A DNA stretch of 64,000 bases from Escherichia coli. Lineage in GTDB: Bacteria; Pseudomonadota; Gammaproteobacteria; Enterobacterales; Enterobacteriaceae. The notes below the pieces were generated by a model. It saw only the letters and a program-made list of their open reading frames with translations, was not told the origin of the DNA and did no database searches. Position numbers and translations under genes: made by a program. Positions within the stretch are counted from its first letter, which is position 1. The number at the start of each line of letters is the position of its first letter. The DNA lies in NCBI RefSeq assembly GCF_041248615.1, contig NZ_CP158426.1; one strand, written 5' to 3'. This document shows positions 60,965-61,402 of the stretch, piece after piece.

Positions 60965-61402
60965 ATGAAAACGATAAAACCCGAATCGATAGCTCTTTTT
61001 TGCCTCTTATCTGGAGATGTGGATCTGGCGAAACATTTGGCTGAAATATTGCCAATAACTTGTTTTGTTGGTGAGGACTGGCAGCAAGATTTCCAGCCTC
61101 TTGACGGTGGGCCTGTGCAATCGTTATCAGATGTGTATGGCGATTATTCAGTGCTGCTATTGATAGCAGCTGAAAGCGAGATATCCGTACCAGAATGGCT
61201 CGCTCATTCTGAAGGAACGACGGTAATTGTGATTGCAGAACACAATACCCGTTTGCTGACTGGTCCGGCTGGTGGGGCTGTAGCATTGATCCATTATCTG
61301 AATGAAATCTGTCATTCCAGAGAAACCGCTGTCAATGACGCATTTTGTCGTACGTTAACACGAGGAAGTCTGGCTATTCCGCAATGCCATCTTCTTTCGT
61401 AA
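60965..61402 (+). CDS. Unassigned protein, first ORF downstream of the B12 riboswitch-like leader
   Basis: 145-aa ORF from ATG 60965, GGAGG Shine-Dalgarno 9 nt upstream; no family recognised. Confidence 0.45.
   Translation: MKTIKPESIALFCLLSGDVDLAKHLAEILPITCFVGEDWQQDFQPLDGGPVQSLSDVYGDYSVLLLIAAESEISVPEWLAHSEGTTVIVIAEHNTRLLTGPAGGAVALIHYLNEICHSRETAVNDAFCRTLTRGSLAIPQCHLLS

Follow-up and report, generated by a model that had tools for sequence, protein, structure and literature searches.

What stands in the place of the cbi genes in an Escherichia coli cob operon that no longer has them? A Salmonella-type cob leader heads a cluster of about 17 cbi genes, followed by cobUST. In the 64,000-nucleotide stretch of E. 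coli DNA studied here (contig NZ_CP158426.1; called the window, meaning the whole stretch analysed), a 145-aa open reading frame (ORF) lies instead between a cobalamin (vitamin B12) riboswitch and cobU. The ORF occupies positions 60965–61402 on the plus strand, with its ATG at 60965 and its TAA at 61400–61402, and its translation starts MKTIKPESIALFCLLSGDVDLAKHLAEILPITCF. Its Shine-Dalgarno sequence, GGAGG, was read from the sequence at 60951–60955 (plus strand), with the ATG 9 nt downstream. An earlier interpretation made without database searches (the sequence-only reading) had described just this arrangement, an ORF with a good GGAGG site behind a B12 riboswitch and ahead of cobU, and the ORF list, the sequence and an Rfam match of 109.4 bits confirm it. 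That reading recognised no family and named the ORF the least explained coding sequence in the window. The source strain is E. coli, and a 1061-nt query (60480–61540) is 100% identical to strain XJ6.1, in which RefSeq labels the ORF 'hypothetical protein' (WP_001590270.1). We find that the ORF is a truncated cbiG, here called cbiG', which is under relaxed purifying selection.

The identity of the ORF was established at the protein and DNA levels. The NCBIfam CbiG equivalog model NF004463 matched residues 1–118 over profile positions 1–125 of 351 (E = 5.9e-19), so that the ORF does belong to a recognisable family. In tblastn comparisons, the interval matched CbiG of Citrobacter (E = 5e-25) and of Salmonella (E = 1e-22). 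Protein hidden Markov models (HMMs) were built from enteric loci for 17 proteins, namely 15 Cbi proteins, CobU and PocR. Among the Cbi models only CbiG, built from 74 enteric operons, matched the pocR–cobU interval, over its positions 1–124 (E = 8e-23), and the same CbiG-only result was obtained in ten other Escherichia loci. When the ORF family was compared by hhalign with the 74 enteric CbiG sequences, the probability was 99.8% (E = 2e-30), against less than 1% for CbiA, CbiF, CbiH and CbiP. A cbiG DNA profile matched 60951–61300, from 14 nt before the ATG to approximately codon 112 (E = 4.5e-27). A HMMER search of 1.84 billion representative proteins returned only the short family of the ORF itself and, at greater distance, genuine CbiG proteins; existing database tags for the short family read 'cobalamin biosynthesis protein' or 'CbiG'.

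Compared with CbiG from Salmonella, Citrobacter and Klebsiella, the ORF has the same start (M-K/N-T-I/V-K-P-E-S-I-A-L-F-C-L) in the same frame, 42–46% identity across the first ~112–125 residues, and the same place between the cob leader and cbiP/cobU. Residues 1–118 (60965–61318) are homologous to CbiG 1–125, and residues 119–145 (61319–61399) form a poorly conserved tail, which hhalign and MAFFT align to CbiG ~127–166 only loosely, with gaps and at low confidence. The 145-aa ORF is thus cbiG', the first ~125 codons of the cobalt-precorrin-5A hydrolase gene, with its own ribosome-binding site, ATG and frame retained.

Remnants of two further genes flank cbiG'. Upstream, the interval 60507–60861, from the leader through the start of cbiA, matched a DNA profile of enteric cob leaders built from 37 operons (nhmmer, E = 6.7e-88). 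Downstream, a profile joining the 3' 500 nt of cbiP to the 5' 150 nt of cobU (64 enteric operons) aligned through HMM positions 354–649 to 61397–61687 (nhmmer, E = 1.7e-47), which defines a non-coding remnant of the cbiP 3' end at 61397–61535 (plus strand) that reaches the start of cobU. The ORF stop codon sits on the first bases of this stub. Indels within the stub measure 1, 6 and 11 nt and are not all multiples of three. An 89-nt segment at 60862–60950 and the ORF tail at 61301–61396 fall outside the blocks found by the enteric-operon DNA profiles. Remnants of CbiA, CbiF, CbiH and CbiP gave no significant protein-level match in six frames, the cbiA 5' and cbiP 3' stubs being seen by DNA profiles only. 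The relic operon thus runs from the cob leader, with the cbiA hairpin and ATG, through a cbiA' mini-ORF, cbiG' and ~140 nt of the cbiP 3' end to cobUST.

This anatomy bears on the proposal that a single cbiA–cbiP deletion had fused cbiA and cbiP sequence into a new, chimeric frame. cbiA 5' and cbiP 3' remnants do flank the ORF, and tblastn gave a weak match to CbiP 454–478 (E = 0.015) over its last codons and stop. However, the body of the ORF is cbiG in its own frame and with its own ATG, profile comparison with CbiA, CbiP, CbiF and CbiH stayed below 1% as described above, the cbiA remnant is a separate frame of 44 codons, and the cbiP remnant starts only at the ORF stop codon. A chimeric frame is refuted by these data and retains next to no probability. 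What stands of the proposal is that the ORF is a deletion remnant. Because a separate cbiA 5' remnant lies upstream of cbiG' and a separate cbiP 3' remnant downstream, two old deletions, cbiA(3')–cbiF and cbiG(3')–cbiP, are needed rather than one cbiA–cbiP fusion. We suggest that the Escherichia ancestor would have carried a Salmonella-type cob operon (leader, cbiA to cbiP, cobUST) beside pdu and pocR, which then underwent these two internal deletions.

The clear match to a well-characterised gene does not make the ORF a working CbiG. Enteric CbiG, of ~351 aa, has three Pfam domains, CbiG_N at 55–134 (PF11760, E = 1.4e-35), CbiG_mid at 140–217 and CbiG_C at 231–347. The CbiG match ends at profile position ~124–129 of 351 and the ORF at residue 145; CbiG_mid and the CobE-like CbiG_C are therefore absent. 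The NF004463 score of 68.4 bits does not reach the curated equivalog cut-off of 546. Two small deletions remove R76/A79 and D95, and A70, T71, H108 and N113 are replaced. Homology was the only property of a working CbiG, among those tested, that we found in the ORF. Its neighbours in the enzyme pathway are also missing, since no coding sequence for CbiA–F or CbiH–P was found between pocR and cobU, and cbiF and cbiH, formerly adjacent, are gone. Because the middle and C-terminal domains are absent, a Pfam CbiG_N signal is lacking and 35 of 60 near-invariant positions are changed, the 145-aa product should not be the enzyme. It is predicted to be unable to catalyse the CbiG reaction, the substrate pathway of which appears to be absent in any case. 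Structures did not extend the comparison. The CbiG homologues of the CobE and 3EEQ type, whose structures are solved, share the broader CbiG/CobE family with the parent gene. CobE is the counterpart of the C-terminal CbiG domain, which is missing from the ORF, and 3EEQ matches CbiG 59–168 weakly and was retrieved with the ORF by neither sequence nor fold search. A sequence search of the PDB found nothing significant (best E = 0.63–0.9).

We then asked how the ORF has evolved, using a codon alignment of orthologues from eight taxa, the Nei-Gojobori method for the ratio of nonsynonymous to synonymous substitution rates (dN/dS), and neutral simulation on the tree of the ORF itself. The dN/dS of the ORF is 0.40, compared to 0.82 in both shifted frames and 0.72 +/- 0.10 in the neutral simulation, none of whose 400 runs reached 0.40. 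By segment, it is 0.27 for residues 1–70, 0.47 for 71–118 and 0.55 for the tail. Neutrality was rejected in four non-overlapping species pairs (P = 1e-4 to 5e-3). Between E. fergusonii and the rest, at a synonymous divergence (dS) of ~1.4, the value is 0.32 in frame but 0.96 and 1.70 in the shifted frames. Within E. coli, the ratio of nonsynonymous to synonymous diversity (piN/piS) is 0.39 for the ORF versus 0.05–0.19 for neighbouring genes.

The reading frame itself has also been maintained. It is open, without stops, in 11 of 11 Escherichia sequences, and in the neutral simulation (eight taxa, tree length 0.68 substitutions per site) the frame stayed open in every taxon in only 3 of 5000 runs. 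Every indel in the ORF has a length divisible by three (3 nt within E. coli; 9, 9 and 15 nt in E. fergusonii). Alternative frames carry 7–13 stops on the sense strand and 2–12 on the antisense strand. Although the ORF is truncated, as a pseudogene would be, neither an accumulation of frameshifts and premature stops nor a neutral substitution pattern was found. Altogether, these results show that purifying selection does act on the ORF, in relaxed form and most strongly on residues 1–70. Of the earlier suggestion of a real small B12-regulated gene, the 'real gene' part holds, on the strength of the genus-wide intact ORF, the dN/dS of 0.40 versus 0.72 and the in-frame indels; B12 regulation belongs to the model proposed below. 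An antisense ORF of 113 aa (60945–61286, minus strand) was considered as a conservation target and rejected, as every antisense frame has stops (2–12) in every taxon compared.

The same truncated gene is found across the genus. In the same colinear context, E. albertii, E. marmotae, E. whittamii and several cryptic-clade genomes carry a version of 144–145 aa with 67–74% identity, and E. fergusonii one of 156 aa with 47–50% identity. GGAGG is kept in 9 of 11 aligned Escherichia sequences, the E. albertii sequence L005 and the E. fergusonii sequence L013 having GG(G/-)GG. Full-length cbiG occurs in Citrobacter, Salmonella, Klebsiella, Enterobacter, Edwardsiella and other genera, 34–46% identical to ORF residues 1–112, and in a scan of one genome per species the short form was confined to Escherichia. 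The relic appears to be old, standing at the same locus genus-wide with dS >1 to E. fergusonii.

The ORF is intact independently of cobUST. In E. albertii, cobU lacks the stretch encoding the P-loop and cobT is absent, cobS being kept, and the cbiG' ORF is intact. In E. fergusonii the ORF is present behind the riboswitch, the hairpin and a mini-ORF of 49 codons, but cobUST has been deleted and ldtA is the next gene after cbiG'. Loss of cobUST can be located at 4440–5900 in the E. albertii loci L005 and L006, and at 6471–6700 in the E. fergusonii locus L013.

In a separate observation on E. fergusonii, its pduF/pocR segment (L013 3581–5484, compared with 58554–60480 in the window) encodes PocR at 88% and PduF at 83% identity with dS of 1.8–2.6, a distance at the level of Citrobacter and Salmonella. 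This seems too high a divergence for the genus and suggests that the allele is an old, divergent one or that the pdu region has been exchanged; the cbiG' architecture is shared nonetheless. A sequence labelled Escherichia sp. MOD1-EC7003 (L045, match 10001–10366) has a full-length-type cbiG 42% identical to the ORF, and its PduF is 86% identical to that of E. coli, the level seen with Citrobacter. Either this genome carries a wrong genus label or it is an Escherichia with an intact foreign cob operon.

Within E. coli, a 569-nt query covering the mini-ORF and the ORF (60834–61402) matched 644 of 5426 complete genomes at a coverage of at least 80%. All six of these that were sampled had an ungapped match annotated as a coding sequence, and the ORF was intact in each of five pdu-positive genomes checked, in agreement with the conservation that the sequence-only reading had proposed to look for. 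The pseudogene fragment of K-12, O157:H7 and O104:H4 lies at the same locus and retains the last ~45–55 codons and the cbiP remnant at 92–96% identity. Along with pdu, these strains have lost the leader and riboswitch, the mini-ORF and the two thirds of the ORF that are homologous to CbiG, whereas the window holds the undeleted form. The break-points adjoin IS5, what is left of an IS4 element, or the 3' part of pduV, joined head-on to the ORF (L002, K-12-like; L003, O104:H4; L004, PSJ-12). The clipped leftovers are labelled 'cobalamin biosynthesis protein' pseudogene by the NCBI Prokaryotic Genome Annotation Pipeline (PGAP). Removal of pdu has happened several times independently in E. coli.

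The region upstream of cbiG' retains the elements of a Salmonella-type cob leader, with the aptamer, the downstream platform, the ACCCTGA/TCAGGGT hairpin and the cbiA ATG all present. The cobalamin riboswitch aptamer lies at 60572–60746 (plus strand; Rfam RF00174, 109.4 bits versus a gathering score of 31.5, full model 1–189), on the same strand as the 145-aa ORF and 218 nt upstream of its ATG, and is near-invariant among the Escherichia sequences aligned. In Salmonella, the cob leader forms a hairpin over the cbiA ribosome-binding site under B12 control. Here the corresponding hairpin, ACCCTGA-AAGGA-TCAGGGT, the putative translational-control element of the cob leader, lies at 60815–60836 (plus strand) with the cbiA ATG (60834–60836) directly at its 3' side. 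Its sequence is conserved with enteric cob leaders, and the 7-bp stem with an AGGA-containing loop is predicted in 9 of 11 Escherichia sequences, E. fergusonii among them; in L010 and L019, a G-to-T change in the 3' arm results in a different fold. The expression platform linking the aptamer to the ribosome-binding site is thus conserved in most Escherichia and in enteric cob leaders. This platform would act on the mini-ORF, and its link to the 145-aa ORF would run through the ATGA overlap described next and a shared transcript.

At the conserved cbiA ATG begins a mini-ORF of 44 codons, the cbiA' remnant (60834–60968, plus strand), whose TGA overlaps the ATG of the 145-aa ORF as ATGA. The 145-aa ORF thus shares the space between the leader and cobU with a second reading frame. 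Whereas the Salmonella-type leader is followed by the cbi cluster, here it would control a 44-codon cbiA stump coupled to cbiG', with cobUST coming next. The first ~28 nt of the mini-ORF align to the 5' end of cbiA in enteric operons. It is open at equal length in ten aligned non-fergusonii Escherichia sequences, and the E. fergusonii equivalent has 49 codons and ends 20 nt inside its cbiG' ORF. The dN/dS of the mini-ORF is 0.63, compared to 0.72–0.74 in shifted frames and 0.83 +/- 0.23 in neutral simulation, and its variable sites, 22/19/22 by codon position, show no codon-position pattern. It is open in all taxa, as happened by chance in 314 of 5000 neutral runs. The mini-ORF is without amino-acid constraint and looks neutral. 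In one allelic variant (P0001, a single Logan contig), it is fused in frame with the cbiG' ORF to give 188 aa. A terminator-like hairpin with a T-rich run inside the mini-ORF (60882–60900, plus strand) was evaluated as an attenuator and rejected, its stability being no better than that of shuffled sequences in any species; the stem is weak and not conserved, and the T-run is longer in other species.

What, then, has kept the cbiG stump open? The intact frames and substitution patterns suggest that it is mildly constrained across the genus and, as the likeliest account though one we hold with only modest confidence, that it is still translated into a small protein rather than simply decaying. 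We lean slightly towards a residual or new role of cbiG' at the protein level, because residues 1–70 are constrained and the gene persists where cobUST is gone. A number of observations weigh against this account. Pfam gave no match for the ORF even at E <= 10, nor for 11 family members at E <= 0.1. Among the 60 positions of CbiG residues 1–130 that are at least 95% conserved in 74 sequences, 25 are retained and 35 changed. An AlphaFold2 (AF2) model from a 14-sequence alignment had a mean predicted local distance difference test (pLDDT) score of 63.5, with 75–86 for residues 11–60, 71 for 61–70 and <50 for 119–145. Foldseek found no match in the PDB at E <= 0.001, and in AFDB50 only the ORF's own Escherichia family, at a high root-mean-square deviation. 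The protein evolves 3–10 times faster than its neighbours, with 67–74% identity across species versus 96–97% for PocR. In 4782 of 5426 complete E. coli genomes most of 60834–61402 is missing, so the ORF is dispensable, and sampled clipped genomes have at least seven left endpoints (query positions 229, 237, 398, 434, 443, 515 and 520). In several E. coli (P0004–P0010) the allele encodes only 136 aa, owing to a 3-codon deletion (GPAGGAVAL to GPAVAL) and a stop six codons early. Full-text literature searches found no paper on the 145-aa ORF or on an E. coli cbiG remnant.

Several of these points would fit simple decay, with cbiG' as a dead pseudogene that has met no stop so far and is selected through neither its protein nor its translation. 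Only one third of CbiG remains, without the catalytic domains, without the Pfam signature and with 35 of the 60 invariant positions lost; it evolves fast; it is dispensable and has been clipped repeatedly by deletions in E. coli; and PGAP marks the shorter leftovers as pseudogenes. Such decay is nevertheless improbable, given that the frame is open in 11 of 11 sequences, against 3 of 5000 neutral runs on eight taxa, to which E. fergusonii adds a branch of dS ~1.4. Both the shifted frames and the neutral simulation have about twice the dN/dS of the true frame, only in-frame indels occur, piN/piS within E. coli is 0.39, and the other frames carry the stops counted above. Selection might instead act on translation alone, with an inert product: the frame would be kept open so that ribosomes cross the ~700 nt from the riboswitch to cobU, protecting the cobUST message from Rho-dependent polarity or decay and passing on B12 and PocR control. 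The position of the ORF between a conserved regulatory leader and functional cobUST agrees with this, as do a mini-ORF kept open without amino-acid constraint that always ends at the ORF start, a tail that is barely constrained (0.55 versus a neutral 0.72), and the loss of the ORF whenever the leader and pdu are lost. But selection on translation alone predicts a dN/dS near neutral, and the values of 0.27 for residues 1–70 and 0.40 for the whole ORF, unmatched in 400 neutral runs, depart from it. Moreover, the ORF survives intact and still constrained in E. fergusonii, although cobUST has been deleted there and ldtA stands next, and it is intact in E. albertii despite a cobU without the P-loop region and the absence of cobT. 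cobUST is also retained without the ORF in pdu-negative strains, and the stretch between the ORF and cobU contains a promoter-like site. We consider this explanation unlikely, though somewhat more probable than a dead remnant. A specific form of the protein-level role would be exaptation, in which the CbiG N-terminal stump has become a genus-specific small protein, regulated by B12 and propanediol, that serves pdu or corrinoid salvage rather than B12 synthesis, for example by binding incomplete corrinoids and handing them to CobU/CobS or to Pdu enzymes. This would explain the survival of the ORF in E. fergusonii and E. albertii after the loss of cobUST function, and is a speculative proposal to which we give a low probability.

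For a translated cbiG' with a role at the protein level, which we prefer, we infer the following scheme of B12 and PocR control, translational coupling and protein function. Transcription of the Salmonella cob operon is controlled by PocR and B12, and by analogy the relic would be transcribed from the cob leader under the same control. The B12-bound riboswitch would close the hairpin over the ribosome site of cbiA'. With the site open, ribosomes would read the mini-ORF, terminate on the ATGA at the start of cbiG', and then either re-initiate at the cbiG' ATG or load afresh at GGAGG. The same transcript may run on into cobUST. As a best guess, and the weakest step of the scheme, the protein would have a non-catalytic accessory function tied to pdu or corrinoid salvage.

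These results settle the identity of the ORF that had been the least explained in the window, and 'truncated CbiG N-terminal fragment' could serve as its annotation in place of 'hypothetical protein' and 'cobalamin biosynthesis protein'. New here are the reconstruction of a relic operon shaped by two deletions and the evidence for selection on what is left. The locus illustrates how Escherichia has been dismantling its B12-synthesis operon, the synthesis genes being deleted and the PocR/riboswitch control region and the cobUST salvage genes spared; later independent deletions took pdu and the greater part of cbiG' out of most E. coli. The finding is relevant to the long-standing question of a loss of the cob/pdu region by E. 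coli and its reacquisition by Salmonella. The locus is also a compact and clear case of a gene fragment persisting after its pathway has gone, under selection that is relaxed but measurable.

The genes around the ORF have a far lower dN/dS than the ORF itself. The upstream boundary of the relic operon is pocR (59566–60480, plus strand), which encodes a propanediol-responsive AraC-type activator of 304 aa; the gene is annotated as pocR by RefSeq in the identical strain and has a dN/dS of 0.04. Also upstream is pduF, with a dN/dS of 0.05. Downstream, on the plus strand, the ORF list and the RefSeq annotation of the identical strain place cobU at 61536–62081 (dN/dS 0.14), cobS at 62078–62821 (0.03) and cobT at 62833–63912 (0.09). 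These genes assemble the nucleotide loop and form the end of the relic operon that still functions. A promoter-like site, TTGAGA-16-TATATT (61407–61434, plus strand), with 10 of 12 matches to consensus, lies in the cbiP remnant just ahead of cobU; one such site was found, compared to 1.9 in shuffled sequences. The stretch from 61231 or 61276 to 61540, which includes this site, is kept in many pdu-negative E. coli (K-12, O104:H4), where the site may drive cobUST; we offer this as a lead only. Finally, a full-length match (1–83) to the small RNA STnc230 (Rfam RF02075; 71.1 bits versus a gathering score of 50) lies between pduF and pocR at 59422–59505 on the minus strand.

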